Shown here: piece after piece, positions 1-10,901 of the stretch
Position numbering within the stretch: position 1 is the stretch's first letter
Layout: each line of letters begins with the position of its first letter
NCBI GenBank assembly: GCA_965263355.1
Contig: CBDHHL010000021.1
Location: 1 to 10,912 of the forward strand
Reading direction: 5' to 3'
Source: Leptolyngbyaceae cyanobacterium
GTDB lineage: Bacteria; Cyanobacteriota; Cyanobacteriia; Phormidesmidales; Phormidesmidaceae
Length of the DNA stretch: 10,912 nucleotides
The notes under the pieces: model-generated
The model's database searches: none
Told to the model about the DNA's origin: nothing
The model's input: the letters and a program-made list of their open reading frames with translations, nothing else
Made by a program: the position numbers and the translations under genes

Positions 1-159
1 TGAACACCGATCAATCGGACATTTCCGGCTGTTTGACCAGTCTTTAATCTGTCTTAAAGCATAGTTGTAAACGCTTCTAGACGTTTCGAGCCAGTCACAC
101 AAGATCATCTCTTGTTCAGCATCGGGATATAAACGATATTGGTAGTTCAGTGTTAGCAT
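1..159 (-). CDS. tnpB: IS200/IS605-family TnpB (OrfB), N-terminal 53 codons; continues beyond the window edge
   Basis: Manual translation from the ATG at 159: MLTLNYQYRLYPDAEQEMILCDWLETSRSVYNYALRQIKDWSNSRKCPIDRCS. It has the YxYRLYP...R.VYNYAL HTH_OrfB_IS605 start and the KDWxNSRKCxIDRCS segment typical of cyanobacterial TnpBs. Not in the supplied ORF track. Confidence 0.92.
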   Translation of the reverse strand, partial: MLTLNYQYRLYPDAEQEMILCDWLETSRSVYNYALRQIKDWSNSRKCPIDRCS

Positions 160-1000: not shown

Positions 1001-1327
1001 TTACTGATCAGAAAAAGCTAAATGTATTTTCAGTAGATCTGAAAGATGTTGTTTTTCAATTTCTAGAAGAGCTTTTTCGTTATTTTTTTGACACAATTCA
1101 GCGTCGAGATTGACATACTCTTCATTTGTGCTTGTTAGATGGCTTAATGCAGCTTTGCGAGCGTCTGCATTTTTTAACGTTTTATCACTATTAACTTCCT
1201 GGCTTAATTCAGTAAGCTTTAGTGACATCGCTTTATTAATGCCAGCAATTAAATTAGATGTCGCTAAAACATCTAATCTGATTTGACGCAACTTATCAGC
1301 TAGATCAATGCATTCGTTTTTCATCAC
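1001..1327 (-). CDS. Coiled-coil hypothetical protein, 108 aa
   Basis: Heptad-like Leu pattern with a central DKTLKNADARKA motif resembling the LKNxxxRKA motif of small cyanobacterial/phage helical proteins. GTGA overlap with the upstream stop. Confidence 0.8.
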   Translation of the reverse strand: MMKNECIDLADKLRQIRLDVLATSNLIAGINKAMSLKLTELSQEVNSDKTLKNADARKAALSHLTSTNEEYVNLDAELCQKNNEKALLEIEKQHLSDLLKIHLAFSDQ

Positions 1328-1584
1328 AATTCCTTTTTTAATTCTTCAATAAATTCCCTAACACCCTGCTCATTCCTGGTGTAATCGACGAAACTTGCCC
1401 GTCTTACACCAGTCACAAGACCCGCAGCTTCTAACTGCCTCAAATGCCTAGAAGCCGTAGGATGATGCACCCCTAACGCGATCGCAACCTCGCCGCTAGT
1501 GAGCACGCCTTGTCTTTTCAGCACTTGCATCACTTCTAGTCGGCCAGGGTTAGCAAGCGCCGAAAGACAATCATGTACGCTCAC
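1324..1584 (-). CDS. ArsR/SmtB-family winged-HTH regulator (~86 aa; probable GTG start at 1584 rather than 1665)
   Basis: LSALANPGRLEVMQVL...LTSGEVAIALGVHHPTASRHLRQLEAAGLV...R...VDY matches the ArsR consensus ALadptRl.Il..L....v.ela..lg.sq.tvS.HL..L..aGLV. Confidence 0.9.
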   Translation of the reverse strand: MSVHDCLSALANPGRLEVMQVLKRQGVLTSGEVAIALGVHHPTASRHLRQLEAAGLVTGVRRASFVDYTRNEQGVREFIEELKKEL

Positions 1585-1807
1585 AAAGAATTTCAGCCGC
1601 CTTTTTAGACAACTGTTCGAAACTGCCGTAATACAACGTCTGATGGCTTGAGTACCCCAAGTCAAGGCAATACTTACTTGTGATAACAGGATTCCAATTA
1701 AGCTCTATGCAGCCCTGGTAAGCTTTACCTGGCAGATAAATAGACCAGGAATCGTCACCCATCTTTTTTAGTGTCATTTTCCTTTTTTGGAAAGTGTTCA
1801 ATTCCAA
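1571..1807 (-). CDS. Hypothetical protein (78 aa; alternative ATG at 1777)
   Basis: ORF track; co-oriented, fills the gap and overlaps the ArsR start by a few codons. Confidence 0.65.
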   Translation of the reverse strand: MELNTFQKRKMTLKKMGDDSWSIYLPGKAYQGCIELNWNPVITSKYCLDLGYSSHQTLYYGSFEQLSKKAAEILCERT

Positions 1808-1837: not shown

Positions 1838-2191
1838 CTAAATTGCCGCAAACTGTTGAATTGATTGATTAATCTGCTCTCGCTTCTGCCAAAGGCTGCC
1901 TAGCCTTTTGGACTGTTTTTTCTCTAGCCAAACACCATGCTCAAGATAGTAGCTAATTTCATGAGCCTTTAGCCCTCTATGGGCCAAAATCTTTTCTAAT
2001 GCCTGAAAAGAAAAGTCGTCTAGTTGCTTAACATAATTGCCAGAACGCCAAGCCGCAATTGTTTGATGACTTGCTAGTCCATCGCAGCGATCGCTTAGGT
2101 CTCGAACCGTTGCATCAATTCCAGCTGCTTTAAGTATCTTTTTCGATAGCAGCTCTGATAATCTTTGTTTATATTGCGTTGATGCTCTCAT
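1838..2191 (-). CDS. Probable Xre/Cro-CI-like HTH DNA-binding protein, 117 aa
   Basis: TVRDLSDRCDGLASHQTIAAWRSG resembles the Xre HTH pattern (s.reLa...gvs..ti..We.G), followed by a LEKI helix. Confidence 0.6.
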   Translation of the reverse strand: MRASTQYKQRLSELLSKKILKAAGIDATVRDLSDRCDGLASHQTIAAWRSGNYVKQLDDFSFQALEKILAHRGLKAHEISYYLEHGVWLEKKQSKRLGSLWQKREQINQSIQQFAAI

Positions 2192-2201
2192 GGCCGTTAA
2201 A

Positions 2202-3056
2202 CTATGAAACTAAAACTTTCAGGCTAATTATTTCGATGGGGGGAAGTGCCCCTAGTGACAACATACCCTGCTTACATTCATAAGCAAGGCTCAAATCAGG
2301 CTTACTTGCTAAATTTACTCCTCTGTAAATAGTATTTACAGATTCCTTTGATTCTAGGATATCAAATTGTTTGGGCGGTCGCAGTAAATCAATTAAGTAT
2401 TTTGCTGAACCATCGCTTAAGTTATCGGCTTTATCGCCGACTGCTATCTTCCATCGCCAAACGTCATCACATCTAAATGATTGATAGCTAGGCAATGCCC
2501 ACCATTTCTGACGTTTCTTAGATTGCTGGTTCCATTTGCTGCAAAGCCAATTAAATATCTCTTCTCGACTTCGAACGCGTGGAGGGTGGTTGCGAGTATT
2601 TAACCAAAAAATATCAGGGTTTTGGACTAACCCATGCCAGTCACTATCAACGGTAGCCAAATAGATTTGATCGATCAATCCTGAGCTGCTATCTAGCCAT
2701 AGCCGAACAATAGCAGCGGCTACGTCGTCGGCTTCTTGTGATTTTATATCAATCAAAGAAGCACTGCTGCTTAATATGCCCTCCATCGCAGTATGGAATG
2801 ATGCGGGTTTAGGTTTGCGGCCTGCTTTGTAATCGGGGAATAGCTGATTACGCCAGTAGGGCTTAGAGTCAATTGCCCAAACGCATTTAGCAGTTGATTG
2901 CAACGCAGGGATCCAGCCTAGTGAATTAACCCATTCTGCCGCCATATAAGCGTAAGCTTTAGCATTAGTTTCGGTTAGACCTGCCTTGTCAATCTGTGCC
3001 GACATTTGGAAGGCGATCACAGACGTATCAACAACAATTAGGTTATTCACTATCAC
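2202..3056 (-). CDS. 5'-3' exonuclease / flap endonuclease (PolA N-terminal domain, T5 D15, T4 RNase H-like)
   Basis: Full FEN/PIN motif set in order: IVVDTS, WAIDSKPYWR...FPDYKAGRK, EADDVAA, TVDSDW, VGDKADNL. Confidence 0.93.
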   Translation of the reverse strand: MIVNNLIVVDTSVIAFQMSAQIDKAGLTETNAKAYAYMAAEWVNSLGWIPALQSTAKCVWAIDSKPYWRNQLFPDYKAGRKPKPASFHTAMEGILSSSASLIDIKSQEADDVAAAIVRLWLDSSSGLIDQIYLATVDSDWHGLVQNPDIFWLNTRNHPPRVRSREEIFNWLCSKWNQQSKKRQKWWALPSYQSFRCDDVWRWKIAVGDKADNLSDGSAKYLIDLLRPPKQFDILESKESVNTIYRGVNLASKPDLSLAYECKQGMLSLGALPPIEIISLKVLVS

Positions 3057-3132: not shown

Positions 3133-4671
3133 TCAATCAGCCATCAGTTTGTAAATTAAACTTTGAGCTTTAGCGATGCATTCTTGAAACTCTTTTTCCT
3201 GAGCAGAGTCGACGGCGTACCACAATGTTTCTAGCCCTGGGATTGCAAGAAACCCGTCAATTTCGTACTCTTCACAAAAGCAGTCAATCAGGCAGATCAT
3301 GACGTGCATTGCATCGGTTAATGGTCTTAATTGCAACCAATCAGCCTTAGCTTTTTTGTTGGCTTTCACTGGCTCAGGGGGCTTAGCAAAATGCGTTTTA
3401 ATGTTCGGCTGGCTGGCTAGTGTCTTAGCTAATGCATTCCCTGGGATAATCGGCATTGGTACCCTAGCTTCAAACAGCATGTAACTAGTGGTTGGCTGAT
3501 CACTAACTCCAGTAATTAAAAATTGCCGAATCATCCAGTGATGACTCCAAATAGTGCTTTTGGGCATCCCTGATACATCATGAGCAGGGTTAAAGCCCAT
3601 ATTGGCCATGCCGTTAACGCTATATCCGTCACGAAATGTGCGCAAATGTGATTTGCCCCAATTAACTAAAGCAATATCATTAGAATCTCGTTTGCTAGGC
3701 TTAATTCCTTTTGCTTTTTCGTATTCAGTTTCTATATAAGAGACAAGTTCTTGCCAATCACCAACCGGATATCTAAGCCCAGTCGTTGCCGCCATGCCAT
3801 ACAAAATCACTGGACTGGGGCAATAGATATTCGCAACCAGTGGCCATAGTTCTTGAAACAATCGAAGGGTTACCCAGACATCTTGAGCGCAATATTCAAA
3901 CAGTGTCTTTGGCCCTTCCCCTCCAACTGTTTTCAGAATCTCAATTCCCAGCACATCACTAGCTAAACTGGCCAGATCCATATCGGATGCCTGGGTTACC
4001 CAATCAGGAGCAGGCTTGCCATTAGCGATCGCAACCTTGTACTTCTCATACTGCGATCGCTGTTCTTTATGCACACCTCTGACAAGCATTGCCAGGGCCA
4101 TCACATCTATAAATAGACAACGCTCTGGTCCATACTCGGCATAAGAACTACTAAGAAATTGCGAATCATGGGCAGCGCCGTTCTGAGTGATTATGATGCA
4201 ACCAGTTGGGAACGGAATAGTACGCCGCTTAGTTTCCGTCCAGCAATACATTGGGTTTTGCTCTTGCCATGCGTACCAGTAACCGTCGGCCCCATAGCAA
4301 ATGCATAGGCAGGGCAACCATGCGTCTATATCAGCGTTTGCCGTGAATGCTTGCAATTCAATGGATTCAACATCGAGAACCATGGTTGCAGGCAGGTCAT
4401 CAGGGGAAATGCATTGCCAGCTGCCCTCATCAAGACGAGACCAACCACTGCCGCCCACCTCGGCAAATGTTGGGATAAATTCAACTGGGAATCGCTCAAC
4501 TTGCACATTATTTAATAGGGGGGTTAATTCAACTGCGATGTCATGCCAAAGATCCCCAACCATTCCTTCTAGCCAAGCTCGCCACTCGGCACCTGTGGCC
4601 CCCTCCTTAGGGTATGGATATGAGCTGAACTTTGGTTCTGTTACTGGTCTAGTAATTGTTGTTGCTGACAT
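3133..4671 (-). CDS. DNA polymerase gamma-like (family A) protein: intact 3'-5' exonuclease with a degenerate polymerase domain
   Basis: Pol gamma-specific segments GWSR, VLDVE (ExoI D100/E102), WYAW, QNGAAHD (ExoII D169), FIDVMAL...G...QR, PDW, YCAQDVW.T...F....P....CPSPVILYGM (ExoIII Y260/D264). The C-terminus DAMHVMI......EEYEIDG resembles the Pol gamma palm but has no HDE. Confidence 0.85.
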   Translation of the reverse strand: MSATTITRPVTEPKFSSYPYPKEGATGAEWRAWLEGMVGDLWHDIAVELTPLLNNVQVERFPVEFIPTFAEVGGSGWSRLDEGSWQCISPDDLPATMVLDVESIELQAFTANADIDAWLPCLCICYGADGYWYAWQEQNPMYCWTETKRRTIPFPTGCIIITQNGAAHDSQFLSSSYAEYGPERCLFIDVMALAMLVRGVHKEQRSQYEKYKVAIANGKPAPDWVTQASDMDLASLASDVLGIEILKTVGGEGPKTLFEYCAQDVWVTLRLFQELWPLVANIYCPSPVILYGMAATTGLRYPVGDWQELVSYIETEYEKAKGIKPSKRDSNDIALVNWGKSHLRTFRDGYSVNGMANMGFNPAHDVSGMPKSTIWSHHWMIRQFLITGVSDQPTTSYMLFEARVPMPIIPGNALAKTLASQPNIKTHFAKPPEPVKANKKAKADWLQLRPLTDAMHVMICLIDCFCEEYEIDGFLAIPGLETLWYAVDSAQEKEFQECIAKAQSLIYKLMAD

Positions 4672-5000
4672 GATTTATTAGTTTGTTTGAACTTTTGACC
4701 GGCCCATTGTGCGTGCTTACGTTTCGCATTTTGAGCTTCTGTTTCTTTTGTATCGTCGTCATGGGCCACACCAACAGCTTGGCGACGGTATACCTCAATT
4801 AAGTAAGGGATTTTATGCTTTTTCTTATTGAGGCAATCAAGCCGTTGGTCAACATCTACCCACCAAATGCCATCAGAACGAGTTAGGCAATAATCACAGC
4901 GGCATAAGCTAGCGTCTAAGCCTGGGATGATGGCATTTGGCGAAGCAGTGCATTTGGTTTTAGAACGACGGGTTAAGGGTAGTTCTAATTGGTGAGGCAT
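4641..5000 (-). CDS. Hypothetical Cys-rich protein, possibly Zn-binding, 119 aa
   Basis: ORF track. Contains C-x15-CRCDYC and a later Cys; starts 2 nt after the KilA-N stop and overlaps the Pol gamma-like start by 31 nt. Confidence 0.7.
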   Translation of the reverse strand: MPHQLELPLTRRSKTKCTASPNAIIPGLDASLCRCDYCLTRSDGIWWVDVDQRLDCLNKKKHKIPYLIEVYRRQAVGVAHDDDTKETEAQNAKRKHAQWAGQKFKQTNKSCQQQQLLDQ

Positions 5001-5002
5001 GG

Positions 5003-5842
5003 TTATACAGGAAAGATTTCTAATGGGATGCCTGCACCTGTTTTTTTCAGGACTTGAGCGAATTCATTATCAATCAAATAAGCTTTCCACTTGTACATGG
5101 CCAATGGAACCATGTCGAATTCTTGCAAGCACCATTCTTTATAGCTTTGATACCATTTAGAAATTGGTTTTTGTTGGTTTCTAATCAAAGCTAAGCTAGC
5201 CAACCAGTTCTCAACACTACGCGCCTGTAATTCACGCTTTCGTTTGATAAGGTATTTTTTACGATTGTCTTCTGCAATCAATTGAGCGCACGCATATTCT
5301 GGATAACAAATTAGTGCAGCTCGGTGCTTAAGATCTCGAGATTGGGCGCAGTCCTTTGGAAACACATCTTCGATTTGCTCAACCATCTTAATGAACTTAA
5401 GTTCATGAGCTGGGATTGACTCTTCAGCCTCCAATCGGCCTTCAGTCATATAAGTACGAACCCATTTGCTAACTTGCAGGGCAAATGCTGGGCTGCACCA
5501 CATTGCAAATTGAATAGCAATATCAGGGTGTGCCCATGTCCCACCATTACGGCCTTGGATGGTTCTAATAGGTGGCTCAATATCCTTGCTATCACTAGCA
5601 TTTTCTGAAAACTCCCCCTCTGAGGGGGTAGATAAGTACGGACACTTTTGATGTCTTAAAAACTCATCAAACAATTCTTTCGTGGGCTCGGTTTTTAGCC
5701 AATGATCAATTCGCTTGCCGGTAGCATTAGCCATCTGATTGAGATTGATATAGCCATCTTCTCGCTTTTGCCAGATATCAACTTGATTAAAGCTGCGAAC
5801 GATATTGGAATCGTTATTGTCGTTGGAAGTGTTTATGGTCAT
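5003..5842 (-). CDS. KilA-N domain DNA-binding protein with a C-terminal primase-like (probable winged-helix) domain
   Basis: KilA-N motifs REDGYINLNQMANATGKRIDHWL and GGTWAHPDIAIQFAMWCSPAFALQVSKWV. The last 72 aa align with the C-terminus of the 8525-10774 primase. Confidence 0.92.
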   Translation of the reverse strand: MTINTSNDNNDSNIVRSFNQVDIWQKREDGYINLNQMANATGKRIDHWLKTEPTKELFDEFLRHQKCPYLSTPSEGEFSENASDSKDIEPPIRTIQGRNGGTWAHPDIAIQFAMWCSPAFALQVSKWVRTYMTEGRLEAEESIPAHELKFIKMVEQIEDVFPKDCAQSRDLKHRAALICYPEYACAQLIAEDNRKKYLIKRKRELQARSVENWLASLALIRNQQKPISKWYQSYKEWCLQEFDMVPLAMYKWKAYLIDNEFAQVLKKTGAGIPLEIFPV

Positions 5843-5913
5843 AGTTTTTAGCCTTTTCTTGTTTGATTTGAATTACTTGAATTGATGCACCGTGAATTGA
5901 CGAACTTGACTAG

Positions 5914-7641
5914 TTAGCACATAAAAATCAACTGTTTACGTGCCCTAGTAGCTGCGGTGTACAGCAGCTTTCGAGGATCCCAAGTTTCGTCAAATTTTGC
6001 TTGTGCGTTCGACATAAGAGTCTTCATGTCAAGCACGACAATATCTACTGTTACGCCTTGCAGCCGATGGCAAGTGCTCACATAGCTGTAACTGGCCTTA
6101 TCAGCAAAGTTGGCCAAGTCAAAGTAGTCTATCCACAATCCCGTTTTAAGCTTTTGATATTCATACTGCTGTAAAGGTTCGCCGTTCTTCTTTTTCCACC
6201 AATTTTTTAAACCAAACTCTTCCCAAACAGCCTTAGCCTGCTCCCCTTCCTGTCCTCTAATACCTGTAGATTTACGACTGCGGGTCTGAGTAACTTTTGC
6301 TCGGCTAGCTAGCTGCTTACATTCAAGCTGCCATTGGTCGTACTGAGCTGGGTTGAGCAAACATATTGCTTTTCGTTCCGAGAACGGTAGCCCTGACTCA
6401 TAACGCCGATACCGAAAAATCATCCGGCTAAATTTAGTACCAAGCTTTGATGTCATCTCAAATGACTGGTCTGTAAGAATTGTTCCAGAAGTGCCAAGAC
6501 TTACATATGCACCCGGTCCGCATAGGTCGCCAAGTTCTAAAAGTGTGCTGGTGTGCTCTTCCAGCTTCGATTTTTTCCCACCGCAAGCAACGTCATAAGC
6601 ATATGAACTGCTACGGCTAACAGCATTCAACGTCAACACAACATCCCCTGGATCGTAAAATAGTCCAGACAAATCCCCATCTTTGAGAATGCCGCGAATC
6701 TGATAATTAAGGGCCATCACCCTAGCGTTAGTCGCTGCAGCAAATCGGATAGACTCCCCAGCTGCGTACAGTTCTTTAAGTTGAGGCATGACTTCCCACT
6801 CTTGCAGAACCATTAAAGTGTCATCTTCCTCCACTCGCTGATGCAGCCAGTTGTAATCTCGTTCAGTACGAACCTTATTGCAGTATTCAAGAATTGCGCC
6901 CTTATAGCGAACAACCTCTGTTAACTCTTGGAATGACGGCAAAGACTCAACCTTGCTAATTGTTTCGCCAATAGGTGGCAGCTGAGCAGGATCCCCCAAG
7001 AAAATAATTTGAAAGTCAGGGTGCATCACTGGGTCATTCGCTAGTTCGCAAAAAAGCCCATATAGAAGCTTGTCGATCATTGACCATTCATCAACTAACA
7101 AAAATCTGACTTTCTCTATTCCTTCCTTGAGCTTTCCGCTAGGCACAAACGATTGAACTTCAGCGTCTGAAGCGTTACGACGTATCAATAAAGCATCAAT
7201 TAACGCCGATTCATCCGTACTTCTAAGCTCTTCCTTAATGCCTAAAAGGACATCTAATTTATCTTGGTCCTTTCGTTTGAACTCAACTGTCTTAGGCCGC
7301 AAACCAAGCAATGAATGAGCGGTAGTCACTTCAGTAACAGCACTTCCCCTCAACGAGTTCTCAATCACCCCTTTAGCTTGATGAGTAGGAGCGCAAGCCC
7401 AGACAGGACCATTAATAAGCCCCTCTTCAATAGCAGCCTGCACAACATATTTAATCACGGTGGTCTTTCCCGTCCCAGCAAAGCCAGTCACACGAGCAAG
7501 CTTAGAAGGCTTAAGCCTTAGCCATTCCAGTACCTCAGCTTTAAGAACCTCTTGCTGGCCTGTCAACGTTATTTTTGGCGATTCGTCATCGCCAGTAGCC
7601 ATCAATAATGACGACTGAATCGCCTCAACCATACAAATCAC
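5914..7641 (-). CDS. SF1B 5'-3' DNA helicase, Dda/RecD2-like (start may be 7641, 7632 or 7602)
   Basis: Motifs Q (LTGQQ), I GFAGTGKT, Ia APTHQAK, Ib TAHSLL, II LVDEWSMI, III GDPAQLPPI, IV LTEVVRY, IVa AATNARV, V TCHRLQGVTVD, VI LLYTAATRAR. Confidence 0.93.
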   Translation of the reverse strand: MICMVEAIQSSLLMATGDDESPKITLTGQQEVLKAEVLEWLRLKPSKLARVTGFAGTGKTTVIKYVVQAAIEEGLINGPVWACAPTHQAKGVIENSLRGSAVTEVTTAHSLLGLRPKTVEFKRKDQDKLDVLLGIKEELRSTDESALIDALLIRRNASDAEVQSFVPSGKLKEGIEKVRFLLVDEWSMIDKLLYGLFCELANDPVMHPDFQIIFLGDPAQLPPIGETISKVESLPSFQELTEVVRYKGAILEYCNKVRTERDYNWLHQRVEEDDTLMVLQEWEVMPQLKELYAAGESIRFAAATNARVMALNYQIRGILKDGDLSGLFYDPGDVVLTLNAVSRSSSYAYDVACGGKKSKLEEHTSTLLELGDLCGPGAYVSLGTSGTILTDQSFEMTSKLGTKFSRMIFRYRRYESGLPFSERKAICLLNPAQYDQWQLECKQLASRAKVTQTRSRKSTGIRGQEGEQAKAVWEEFGLKNWWKKKNGEPLQQYEYQKLKTGLWIDYFDLANFADKASYSYVSTCHRLQGVTVDIVVLDMKTLMSNAQAKFDETWDPRKLLYTAATRARKQLIFMC

Positions 7642-7661
7642 CCAAAATCTCTACAACCACA

Positions 7662-7690
7662 ATAATAGCAACCACAACCATACCTGTAAA
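7662..7690 (-). promoter_or_regulatory. Sigma70-type promoter for the helicase-to-small-ORF operon
   Basis: Minus strand: TTTACA (7690-7685), 17-nt spacer ending in TGC, TATTAT (7667-7662), about 20 nt upstream of the helicase start. Confidence 0.65.
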
Positions 7691-7758
7691 GACACTTGAC
7701 AAAAAATAAACGCCACTGACAGGCCAGCAAGCGAGTCCTTCAAAAGCAAAAATCAGAG

Positions 7759-8303
7759 CAACTGGCACACTAAAAAGCAAATTTAACGACAGAATGCGGG
7801 TTTCAGCGCTTTTTAGCTTTAGTGCATCAGTACTATAGTCTTTGGGTAAAACTTAGATTCTATTTAACAGACGTTAACCCCCTGGATTCTGCAAAAAAGC
7901 ATTCAAAAAATCACTGGGTTTCACCTACTAATCCACTGCTTTTCAGTAGTTATTTCATAGTTATTTCAAGCGCTTTTTATCGGCTGTATCCCTTGCTATA
8001 TATACGTTTCAGCTATTTCTATGCTTTAATATTTTATATATTTCAATTTCAAACTTTCTGTTTTAGAAATAGATAGAGGCTAATAGGGCATAGATAGGGA
8101 GCACTTCCATAGAAAACAGAAAGTTTGAGCCAAAAAATGGCCGTTTTGATAAAAAAATCGCTGAAACCATTGATATAAAAGGATTTCAAAATTCAAGTTT
8201 TAGTGAAATTCCTAGGAATTTACTAATGATTTTTGTGAAAAAACTGATCACTTTTTGGGCTTAACTACCACTAGTCCTACAAATCACTATCAACTGGCAC
8301 ACT
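7759..8303. other. Putative replication origin (non-coding, AT-rich, symmetric repeats)
   Basis: Lies just downstream of the primase-helicase. Contains a 16-bp perfect IR (8049-8064/8113-8128), inverted GCTGAAAC-type boxes (7983-8013, 8160-8190), tandem TAGTTATTTCA x2 (7947-7968), a 16-bp palindrome (8206-8221) and flanking 13-bp direct repeats (7759-7771, 8291-8303). Confidence 0.6.
8049..8128. repeat. 16-bp perfect inverted repeat TCAAACTTTCTGTTTT / AAAACAGAAAGTTTGA with a 48-bp purine-rich spacer
   Basis: Read directly from the sequence. Confidence 0.9.
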
Positions 8304-8456
8304 CAACCAGGGTTTTATGAAGACAGCCTACTTGGTGTCATTTGATACATCGCTAAGCTTTTCTTAGGTCCCCTCGTTCTAGGAAAGGGGAGGGGGGATG
8401 CGGCGGCAGTTTTGTTTTGCTGGCTCTAGGACTGGTTGCAGCGGTCGATATCGGCC

Positions 8457-8494
8457 AAAGTAAAAGCGCCTCAGGTTTGGTGGCCTGAAGCGCT
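8457..8494 (-). terminator. Rho-independent terminator of the primase gene
   Basis: Minus-strand RNA AGCGCUUCAGG-ccaccaaa-CCUGAGGCGCU (11 bp, one U-G pair) followed by UUUACUUU, 30 nt after the primase stop. Confidence 0.8.
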
Positions 8495-8524
8495 CGTGTA
8501 GTTGTCTGTTTCGATGTTTGTAGT

Positions 8525-10774
8525 TCAGTTGAATAGTCCTAGCATTTTTCTAATGTCAACGTCTTTTAGGGGAGGCAGTGTTAGCGGTATGCCTTCTCCT
8601 GTCTTCCTCTGAGTTTCGGCACCGGCGGCAAGGATATATTTTTTCCAATTTCTCATTTTTAATGGTTTGCAGCCTGTGTCAATCACCCATTCTTTATAAC
8701 GGTTGTACCAGACACTAATTATCTGAGTTTGAGCAACGGATAGTTCTAGATGTTCCATCCATTCGTAGACAGTATTTGACTCTGCCAAGTGACGTTGCTG
8801 TAATGCTATATTTTCTTCAGACTTGAGGTGGGTTTTTAGTGTTTCCACTGCTTCATCTAGGGAGATAGCCCAAGCCCAATTAAATATTCCTGGTAGCTCA
8901 GCTTTTAATTTGTTGGCCAGCTCAGTATCGATCTCGGTAGGTTTGCGGCTAAATGGGATATATAGTACTCGCCTACTAAGTCCTTCTTGGTCAGCTGCCC
9001 TGGACTTGATCGGCTGGTTCATGGCTGCCCATAAGACAGTTCTAAATTCTTCTGTTCGTTTGTCTTTATATTTAGCTTCTACGTCCAGGGGTTCGTTGAC
9101 ACAGATTGAATTAATATTTCCAACCGCCTGACTGCTCAATTCGCCTTTGAGGTCCATTGCAAAGCAAGCCCGTTTGCCGGACATCCCGTTCATGCCGCGA
9201 GCGTCATTTACATTGTGATAGTTCCAGGCGGCATAACTGCCCTCCCCTACCAGCTGTGTCAACACGCTCAAGAATGTTCCCTTACCAATGCCAGCTGGGC
9301 CAATTAGAACAGGCCAGATATGAACGGGATAGGGGCCTTGCTCTTTGGGCGTGATTGTCCAACGGATAAGGGCTTGAATAATCTCTGGCCACTTTTCATC
9401 ATCTTCGAATATCCAATTTAGCCAGGTTAGCCACTGGATGCATTGGGCCTCAGGGTCATAGGAAAACCCTAATGTCTGAGTAATATAATTTTGAGGAGAG
9501 TGTGGGATAAGCTCTTTTTTATTAAGCTCTAGCACTCCATTAATAAATCCTAGTAGATGCGGCTGGTCAAATTGGTCTTTGTTTAATCGGGTTTTGTTTT
9601 CTACAAACCTCAGTTCTTGCGCCGCGATCGCACGCTTCCTATTTAGCCAGTGCTGGGCATCAGCTATTTGTTCGGAAAGTAATTTCCAGGCTTCCTCGCC
9701 TACGTCTTTCCAGACACCTTCTGGATAATATTGACGTTTTGAATAATCAGGGATATTGGCATAAATCCCATGCAAGGATAGCCAACTGATTAACCCCCTA
9801 ACATGATGCTGTTTATTAATAGGAGTATCTTTGTGGGCATCGTCTCCCAATGGTTCAGCCGCAAACAGGCACTCAGTATCTAATGATTTGTCTTCCCACT
9901 TGCATTTTACTAATGGCAATGCATGTCTTAACAATTCCTTTACTGGCGATTCGCCCAATAGCATAATTGCGTCATCTAAGCCTAGTTTTTTGGTCTTTTT
10001 TTCATTACTAAGCTTCAACCGTGTTGGAAGCAGTGCATATTTTAGCTTTTTAGCTAATGCTAGTGTTCGGGTAGGCGCTCGCTCATTAGAACATGTCTCG
10101 TCTATTTCGAGCTGATGATAAGCCTCTATTAAGTTTCCAGCCAATGCTTTAATGGCCCTAGCGACTTGATGTTTGTGGGTGATATCGCTATCAAAAACTA
10201 TGGTTAAGGTTTGCGCGGCTCTAATATCAATCTCATCAACCAGGCATCCTAGAGCACGATTACCCCATTCATCCTTATCGCCAGTCTTGTAACTGTCAAC
10301 TCCTCCAATCCCTATACATGGGATATTACAGAGTGTTGCTAATAGGCTTTTTTTCTCGCCCTCTGCTAAGGCCAGGTTAAGTCCTGAAAACTTAGTAAAA
10401 TCTACTTTGTTAGCCACTCTCGGAAAATAAATCCGTGGGGGCGCTCCTTTTGGGGATAGATATTTGCATTTTGGGCTTGGCGGGTTGTCTGGCCTGAGTC
10501 TAAAAAATGGCCTGCTATCATCCCCCCATCGATATACGTCCTTGCCGTCAATCGTGAAATAAGTGAATATCAGACCGGCCCTACCGTGGCCTGTGAGCGT
10601 TCTAGCTAAGGCAGCATCAGCGCTAAATATGCCAGCTACTAGGGCAGCACTGGGACTTATACCGCTTTCTGCTAAATGACTAACGTGATGGGCTTCTAGA
10701 TAGTGCTGCTCGGGCAGCTCGGGAATAAACTTGCGTATTGACTTCCATCCAAAATCAGCTCCTAATCCACTCAT
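8525..10774 (-). CDS. Phage/plasmid primase-helicase, P4/D5-like (DUF3854 TOPRIM-type primase + D5_N + SF3 helicase + C-terminal wHTH)
   Basis: RLRPD...KYLSPKG, LAEGEKK, IGIGGV, IVFDSD, KLGLDD (DUF3854/TOPRIM); LLGFINGVLEL...PHSPQNYIT...YDPEAQC..W (D5_N); Walker A GPAGIGKGT, VEAKYKD, motif C AAMN, Arg finger LSRR, ELPGIFNWA. Confidence 0.93.
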   Translation of the reverse strand: MSGLGADFGWKSIRKFIPELPEQHYLEAHHVSHLAESGISPSAALVAGIFSADAALARTLTGHGRAGLIFTYFTIDGKDVYRWGDDSRPFFRLRPDNPPSPKCKYLSPKGAPPRIYFPRVANKVDFTKFSGLNLALAEGEKKSLLATLCNIPCIGIGGVDSYKTGDKDEWGNRALGCLVDEIDIRAAQTLTIVFDSDITHKHQVARAIKALAGNLIEAYHQLEIDETCSNERAPTRTLALAKKLKYALLPTRLKLSNEKKTKKLGLDDAIMLLGESPVKELLRHALPLVKCKWEDKSLDTECLFAAEPLGDDAHKDTPINKQHHVRGLISWLSLHGIYANIPDYSKRQYYPEGVWKDVGEEAWKLLSEQIADAQHWLNRKRAIAAQELRFVENKTRLNKDQFDQPHLLGFINGVLELNKKELIPHSPQNYITQTLGFSYDPEAQCIQWLTWLNWIFEDDEKWPEIIQALIRWTITPKEQGPYPVHIWPVLIGPAGIGKGTFLSVLTQLVGEGSYAAWNYHNVNDARGMNGMSGKRACFAMDLKGELSSQAVGNINSICVNEPLDVEAKYKDKRTEEFRTVLWAAMNQPIKSRAADQEGLSRRVLYIPFSRKPTEIDTELANKLKAELPGIFNWAWAISLDEAVETLKTHLKSEENIALQQRHLAESNTVYEWMEHLELSVAQTQIISVWYNRYKEWVIDTGCKPLKMRNWKKYILAAGAETQRKTGEGIPLTLPPLKDVDIRKMLGLFN

Positions 10775-10797: not shown

Positions 10798-10901
10798 ATT
10801 ATATTTGCTGCGTTTTATATAATGGCATTGCTTTACAAGCATGGCTGTATTTTTTCTTTTTTGTCAAGCCCCTTGACAAACTTGATTGTATTTTTTAGTG
10901 T
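10798..10901. promoter_or_regulatory. Divergent promoter region with back-to-back TTGACA boxes forming a palindrome
   Basis: TTTGTCAAG-CCC-CTTGACAAA (10860-10880). Plus strand TTGACA-17 nt-TAGTGT (10873-10901). Minus strand TATAAT at 10803-10798, upstream of the primase ATG. Confidence 0.55.

Follow-up and report, generated by a model that had tools for sequence, protein, structure and literature searches.

The KilA-N protein P0001, encoded in the window (the whole stretch of DNA analysed here, 10,912 nucleotides), ends in a tail that is, judged by its sequence, an old copy of the tail of the D5-type primase-helicase P0002 encoded in the same window. The design of a KilA-N domain joined to a primase-type tail is, on the comparisons below, both real and recurrent, with signs of divergence. 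The parts of the two proteins are:

5003–5842, minus strand: P0001 gene, encoding a KilA-N / linker / winged-helix protein of 279 residues (open reading frame, Pfam, nine aligned alleles)
5444–5773, minus strand: KilA-N domain of P0001, residues 24–133 (PF04383, E 1e-25)
5546–5734, minus strand: KilA-N core exchanged between P0001 alleles, residues 37–99 (contig joint 5546–5732)
5243–5437, minus strand: P0001 linker, residues 136–200, without a family match (98–100% identical, nine alleles)
5003–5242, minus strand: P0001 tail, residues 201–279, a copy of the primase C-terminal winged helix by BLASTP, Smith-Waterman, AF2 and HMM
5009–5062, minus strand: wing hairpin of the P0001 tail, residues 261–278 (9/18 identical to its own primase)
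8525–10774, minus strand: P0002 primase-helicase of 749 residues, with DUF3854 (Toprim-related), D5_N and DUF5906 (SF3) by profile matches
8567–8776, minus strand: C-terminal winged helix of P0002, residues 667–736 (PF03288, E 0.007, below the cut-off)

The tail of P0001 and its primase counterpart

The preliminary description had aligned the two tails by hand, and its 28 identities over 72 positions, with two gaps of one residue and the three motifs that it quoted, are reproduced. BLASTP of P0001 against P0002 gives 51.2 bits (E 2e-11, 28/81 identities). The proposed shuffling check bears the similarity out: the tails have a Smith-Waterman score of 120 against a shuffle mean of 24.8 and maximum of 49, with none of 5,000 shuffles reaching 120, and these statistics rule out chance similarity. 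The whole proteins score 125 (shuffle maximum 68), and no other pair among the 10 open reading frames of the window scores above 44. We regard the copy as old because the codon-aligned DNA identity of the tails is just 50% over 69 codons (49%, 59% and 42% by codon position); a recent duplication is ruled out by the third-position value of 42%.

At 90 bits against PF04383 (cut-off 23.8), P0001 belongs to the KilA-N family by Pfam, and KilA-N is the sole domain that Pfam and the phage-family profiles recognise in it, no nuclease domain being found with either. The tail is predicted by AF2 as helix-strand-helix-helix-strand-strand at a pLDDT of 87.9, in a model that leans on primase rows (15 of the 19 in its alignment); a single-sequence AF2 model of the whole protein (pLDDT 36) was unusable. 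A structure search with the tail model returned RFX5 (Z 7.5), RFX1 (5.9) and the P4 OBD 1ka8 (5.5, rmsd 3.3, 73 aligned), none of them at Z 8, and Foldseek gave no match at E≤0.001, its lists being headed by Cdc6/Orc1 and D5 primase tails. An RFX/D5-type winged helix is what the model predicts. A profile HMM built from 15 primase tails, with the own primase left out, finds the P0001 tail at E 4e-8 among 120 proteins. The tail has no match to PF03288, to which the primase tail (E 0.007) and the KilA-N protein P0244 described below (E 0.014) match below the cut-off, and a phmmer search with the primase tail gave no relative of solved structure.

The primase comparison set comprised 169 rows, 15 for the own primase and its alleles (one a tail-less fragment) and 154 for others. 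The P0001 tail scores 123–125 against the former and at most 76 against the latter, with 53 for P0006, the nearest sister of the own primase (64% core identity); in agreement with the preliminary description, it is nearer to its own primase than to unrelated D5-type domains. Two trees place the tail as sister of its own primase, with support of 85/85 and 85/88, and in AU tests neither a position outside the own primase and P0006 (p 0.22) nor one with the primase of the syntenic prophage L081 (p 0.18) was rejected. The tail branch is about 10 times longer than that of the primase (2.16 vs 0.18 changes per site), a length that suggests changed function.

When segments of the tail were ranked against 16 primases, the own primase came first for the recognition helix, for strand 1 together with helix 2 and, most clearly, for the wing, where 9/18 residues are identical to the own primase and at most 5 to any of the other 15. 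Helix 1 is kept least (3/11, at positions where the primases share 7/11), and there the own primase is not first, a contrast short of significance (p 0.33). AMYKWKA in the P0001 tail stands opposite KMRNWKK in the recognition helix of the primase, whose basic residues are not kept, and VLKK opposite TQRK in the first wing strand. The long branch and these changed basic residues weaken the idea of a shared DNA specificity, which the preliminary description had considered possible.

The replication gene run and its putative origin

A prophage in a cyanobacterial MAG (L081, genome G001) is syntenic with the window, with identities of 48% for the primase, 60% for the Dda-like helicase, 55% for the 119-residue open reading frame, 51% for the Pol-gamma-like protein and 54% for the exonuclease. 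In addition to the two genes above, the window holds:

2202–3056, minus strand: 5'-3' exonuclease (PF02739)
3133–4671, minus strand: shortened Pol-gamma-like protein, exonuclease part recognisable (PF18136; Pol gamma E 5e-9)
4641–5000, minus strand: conserved open reading frame of 119 residues, directly after the KilA-N gene (found in L081)
5914–7641, minus strand: Dda-like SF1 helicase (phrog_325, E 2e-59; found in L081)
7642–8524, no strand assigned: putative replication origin, AT-rich in its centre and with inverted repeats (counterparts at the syntenic place in L081 and G1137; borders post hoc)
7662–7690, minus strand: sigma-70-like promoter TTTACA-17-TATTAT (10/12) before the Dda/KilA-N/polymerase-like gene run
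8464–8495, minus strand: terminator-like hairpin 3' of the primase gene (same position in L081)

The prophage carries genes for an integrase, both terminases, portal, major head and tape measure proteins, and contigs carrying near-identical window proteins reach 82–165 kb. From the syntenic prophage and these contigs, the window is likely a replication module, that of a large (~100-kb) temperate cyanophage; a P4-like satellite is improbable, given the virion genes (terminase, portal, major head, tape measure) of the relative. The KilA-N gene is absent from L081, in which three unrelated open reading frames lie between the Dda gene and the 119-residue frame; what matches P0001 best there, in a MAG that may be incomplete, is the primase tail. 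Scans of viral, genome and metagenome contigs with the window proteins or with a three-primase alignment gave no relatives, and plasmid and phage records gave KilA-N-only matches or primase matches of at most 30% identity among the matches listed. The large terminase of the G001 prophage (L293, 4000–6537) has 846 residues, and terminase profiles match two separate parts of it, which suggests an insertion such as an intein.

The Pol-gamma-like protein has 512 residues, less than half the size of Pol gamma, and reads AIPGLE where Pol gamma has SIHDEV, the aspartate being missing. The short form is found also in L081 (16416–17960, 51% identity), and it is likely a conserved exonuclease-only derivative. 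Downstream of the exonuclease gene are an ArsR-type HTH gene (1324–1665, minus strand; call from Pfam) and an open reading frame of 117 residues (1838–2191, minus strand; 37% identical in L081), and the start of an IS605 OrfB/TnpB-type gene lies at the window edge (1–159, minus strand; PF12323, E 7e-14).

By analogy, the C-terminal winged helix of P0002 is likely its origin-reading domain, because the tails of SaPI Rep and P4 alpha serve in this way. In SaPI origins, as described, iterons of 5–6 nt lie on either side of an AT-rich stretch immediately 3' of rep and are recognised by the C-terminal winged helix (PMC9371898), and in SaPI5 PriRep5 the wing is described as reading iteron bases in the major groove (10.64898/2026.10.17.759575); both sources present SaPI-type Reps as self-loading, ring-forming proteins that bind iterons through the winged helix. 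A C-terminal winged helix is reported for P4 alpha too (PMC2777425), and the cyanobacterial Rep proteins of PMC10079941 include DUF3854 proteins.

The preliminary description had put an origin between the KilA-N and primase genes. An origin-like region does lie beyond the primase gene, but it is situated between the primase and Dda genes, with the KilA-N gene 1.8 kb further on. These ~880 bp look like an iteron origin whose repeat differs among three relatives (the window, L081 and G1137). Of the 18 TGAAAY sites of the window, 10 fall in 7790–8230, where they face in opposed directions about the AT-rich centre (motif and borders being post hoc), and none of the 7–9-mers of the window origin exceeds the maximum in dinucleotide shuffles, so that its repeat signal is modest. 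In L081, 7 of 7 occurrences of AAAGTACA lie in the intergenic region (shuffle maximum 3), the origin-like region of G1137 has GGTGAA 10 times, and G1151 has no repeat array 3' of its primase gene. The pattern of opposed short repeats about an AT-rich centre is clear in L081 and G1137 and weaker in the window. There are also perfect inverted repeats of 16 nt, 48 nt apart (8049–8128), and of 15 nt, 151 nt apart (7551–7731, one arm in the Dda gene). The promoter-like site before the Dda gene has a counterpart at the same place in L081, with the -35 identical and one base different in the -10; overall, promoter-like sites number 3 vs 7.3 in shuffles, so they are not commoner than chance. Upstream of the primase gene a palindrome (10862–10880) has TTGACA on both strands, possibly as back-to-back promoters, and at this site L081 has a divergent gene of 410 residues with no Pfam family.

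Recurrence, exchange and retention

A KilA-N survey covered 117 other proteins, from 120 listed of 185 matches, and three of the 117 (P0244, P0245 and P0264) have a primase-type tail (E 3e-13 to 7e-12). P0244 (MEO0373396.1) and the primase P0031 (MEO0373398.1) are encoded two genes apart on one contig of 14,948 bp. The three tails group with the primases P0031, P0036 and P0039 (83/89), apart from the P0001 tail, and constraining all KilA-N tails to one group costs 13 log units without being rejected (p-AU 0.056). This suggests that tails were captured repeatedly from primases, a single origin being disfavoured at p 0.056. The whole tail of P0244 scores 93 to its own primase P0031 and 96 and 95 to two others, and for its wing P0031 is joint first of 16 primases; its linker weakly resembles that of P0001 (score 28). 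The co-variation of tail and cognate primase, a check proposed in the preliminary description, holds at clade level, in both pairs for which the cognate primase is identified (P0001 and P0244). The recognition helix of P0245 is 12/16 identical to that of primase P0036, and the wing tip reads KSNG in both of these proteins and KSHG in P0264 and primase P0296, possibly a parallel change in tail and primase.

Atlas clusters combine Bro-N with Pox_D5 (66% and 13% of members) and ORF6N with Pox_D5 (44%), with scores below 0.9 that make them leads only. Not every primase locus has the arrangement: among 290 such loci, many of them short, redundant or distant, a tail-only copy was found just in the window within the DNA examined. 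The tail profile matched primases only, both in 401 Cyanobacteriota genomes (2/401 matched) and in five chosen genomes (4/5); P0244 as query gave KilA-N-only matches, in 8/401 genomes; and a library-wide HMMER search with a 752-column primase profile gave primases only among the matches listed. Word-based searches are too insensitive for tails as distant as the P0001/P0002 pair. In 401 genomes of another phylum, 48 had a PF03288 match, mostly in long frames, with six frames below 400 residues. A Fusibacter chromosome (L092) has a 516-residue D5-type helicase frame twice (3281–4828 and 9794–11341), 95% identical and 6.5 kb apart.

The P0001 gene is retained under purifying selection. In three runs from one study, 12 of the 14 listed variants of the gene are synonymous (5/6 in the tail), and a pseudogene reading is ruled out by this count. 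Nine P0001 protein alleles are 95–100% identical in the tail and 98–100% in the linker, while the KilA-N core has three versions at 35–52% identity, one of them closely similar to KilA-N cores found elsewhere in cyanobacteria (P0240 and P0244, for example). Both end domains of P0001 are exchangeable. In P0270 and P0295 the first ~50 and last six residues are common with P0001, and T5orf172/MUG113 replaces linker and tail; the longest contig of P0270 and that of the primase allele P0027, a nearly identical primase, are both 36,505 in length. From the protein ends and the matching contigs, P0270/P0295 is likely an allele at the same locus as P0001, and the tail would be dispensable because this allele is without it. 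The slot of the KilA-N gene is a gene exchange hotspot. On either side of the gene, contigs in runs X1–X3 part from the sequence of the window (4976–5073, 5002–5004 and 5878–5895), and one contig of 1,600 nt has only the last ~23 codons in common with the window, at about 91% identity.

Possible roles of P0001 and known systems

Our best reading, held tentatively, is that P0001 is an optional, enzyme-free binder of the origin repeats that competes with the primase-helicase and so damps or times initiation. The primase-helicase would load itself at 7642–8524, its wing reading short repeats as in SaPI Rep, and the KilA-N gene would be expressed with the Dda and exonuclease genes from the origin-side promoter. 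The copied wing would still recognise the origin repeats, with the KilA-N domain contributing DNA affinity, and bound P0001, having neither ATPase nor primase, would block or delay loading of the helicase ring or repeat initiation. Origin function, co-expression, binding and the effect of P0001 are steps that we infer. The competitor reading is supported by the wing being best matched to the own primase (9/18 vs at most 5), with helix 1 kept least (contrast not significant), by the tail score of 123–125 and the sister position in two trees, by the origin-like region with lineage-specific repeats in three relatives, by the second pair (P0244/P0031) on the same contig with its wing joint first, and by the synonymous variants (12/14) and the conserved tail vs the variable KilA-N core; the iteron reading described for the PriRep5 wing (10.64898/2026.10.17.759575) adds to this support. 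The competitor reading is weakened by the long tail branch with its altered recognition helix and first wing strand, by AU tests that allow other placements and do not reject one origin for all KilA-N tails, by a P0244 tail that scores two other primases higher, by the modest repeat signal of the window origin, by the absence of gene or tail in relatives, and by the freedom with which KilA-N proteins swap C-terminal domains (PMC10111431).

The same long branch and altered recognition-helix residues would suit domain shuffling with a change of specificity, in which the primase-derived tail has become a DNA-binding module, generic or aimed at new targets, in a KilA-N/Bro-type transcription regulator or antirepressor with no link to the origin. 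The Atlas Bro-N/ORF6N plus Pox_D5 clusters (scores below 0.9), the likely allele with T5orf172 in place of linker and tail, and the other tails of 114/117 listed KilA-N relatives are in line with this. We consider it possible but on balance doubtful, as the wing is nearest (joint first for P0244) to the cognate primase in both identified pairs, the best tree has the tails following primase clades and not one group, and the KilA-N gene sits in a replication gene run.

P0001 might alternatively bind the origin of another element infecting the same cell, be it a relative or a satellite whose primase is similar, and stop that element replicating, in parallel to Odn or BstA. The ICP1 protein Odn is described as turning a borrowed origin-binding domain on PLE (PMC8263062), and BstA, a phage defence protein, as having a KilA-N-like domain (PMC8585504); the slot is variable, several lineages occur together in three runs, and fast divergence from the own primase would suit a foreign target. 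P0001 is, however, an allele without a nuclease, the BstA family matches its residues 92–126 only, and the closest known tail is that of its own primase and not a foreign one, so that we regard an anti-competitor factor as unlikely. Membership of BstA is ruled out, phrog_6287 covering those residues only with no homology in the C-terminal region, and so is membership of the Odn-type nucleases, there being no nuclease domain in P0001.

P4 Cnr acts on the alpha OBD, and by a comparable protein contact the tail of P0001 could pair with the primase winged helix and inhibit it, without competing for DNA. The P4 cnr gene is described as setting copy number (PMC8628076). We think this quite unlikely for P0001, since its DNA-reading wing is kept better than helix 1 and SaPI-type Reps are described as rings that bind iterons via the winged helix. 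The role of a loader that marks the origin and promotes primase-helicase loading, raised in the preliminary description and compatible with an origin-reading fold encoded in a replication gene run, is most improbable: SaPI Reps are described as loading themselves, the syntenic prophage is without the gene, and the likely allele without the tail lies beside a nearly identical primase.

More generally, temperate phages with self-loading D5 primase-helicases might repeatedly graft the cognate winged helix onto KilA-N/Bro proteins, keeping the wing matched to the iterons, as an inhibitor of initiation; we put this forward as a speculation that may well prove wrong. If true, these 'decoy initiator' regulators would form a general class not described so far, and part of the KilA-N/Bro network would gain its first defined role. 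To our knowledge, KilA-N/Bro proteins are common in phages with their function mostly undefined, and there are few systems in which the control of re-firing in D5-type self-loading helicases is understood. Should the copied wing have kept its reading of the cognate iterons, such fusions would test KilA-N/Bro function and re-firing control directly, and would offer a sequence handle for locating origins, and the specificity of their iterons, in phages not yet cultured. Otherwise P0001 is a well-documented case in which a phage regulator recruits a domain from its own replication protein.

Among the known systems near in plan is SaPI Rep/PriRep5, an SF3 primase-helicase with a C-terminal winged helix; its origin lies directly downstream, with short opposed repeats about an AT-rich centre, a layout that the window may share (PMC9371898; 10.64898/2026.10.17.759575). 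The window differs in having DUF3854 (Toprim-related) as its primase domain, in likely belonging to a complete phage, and in carrying the winged helix once more, free of enzyme domains, on a KilA-N protein; no counterpart of this copy is described for SaPI in these two sources. The P4 alpha OBD (1ka8) is of the same predicted fold class as the P0001 tail. Like P4 Cnr, P0001 is encoded by a small accessory gene near the primase and may, by analogy, limit replication; Cnr is, however, a separate small protein, whereas P0001 joins KilA-N to what can still be recognised as the cognate tail, in an element that is probably not a P4-like satellite. With the Bro-N/KilA-N network of PMC10111431 it shares an N-terminal KilA-N domain and an exchangeable C-terminal one, its alleles swapping the core and likely the tail for T5orf172, but the C-terminal module comes from its own replication initiator, and the ten Pfams given there for the network do not include Pox_D5. 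Odn (Gp88) of Vibrio phage ICP1 is likewise a chimeric phage protein with a DNA-binding domain resembling an origin-binding protein; it is described as a nuclease against the origin of a parasite (PMC8263062), whereas P0001 is nuclease-free and resembles its own initiator. KilA-N/Bro domain swapping is already described (PMC10111431), as is ongoing shuffling of phage replication proteins (PMC10684548), and we found no description of the capture of a cognate primase tail in the open-access literature. Domain swapping, origin reading by winged helices and P4 Cnr are parts known already, and the capture of the tail of the cognate primase would be the new part.
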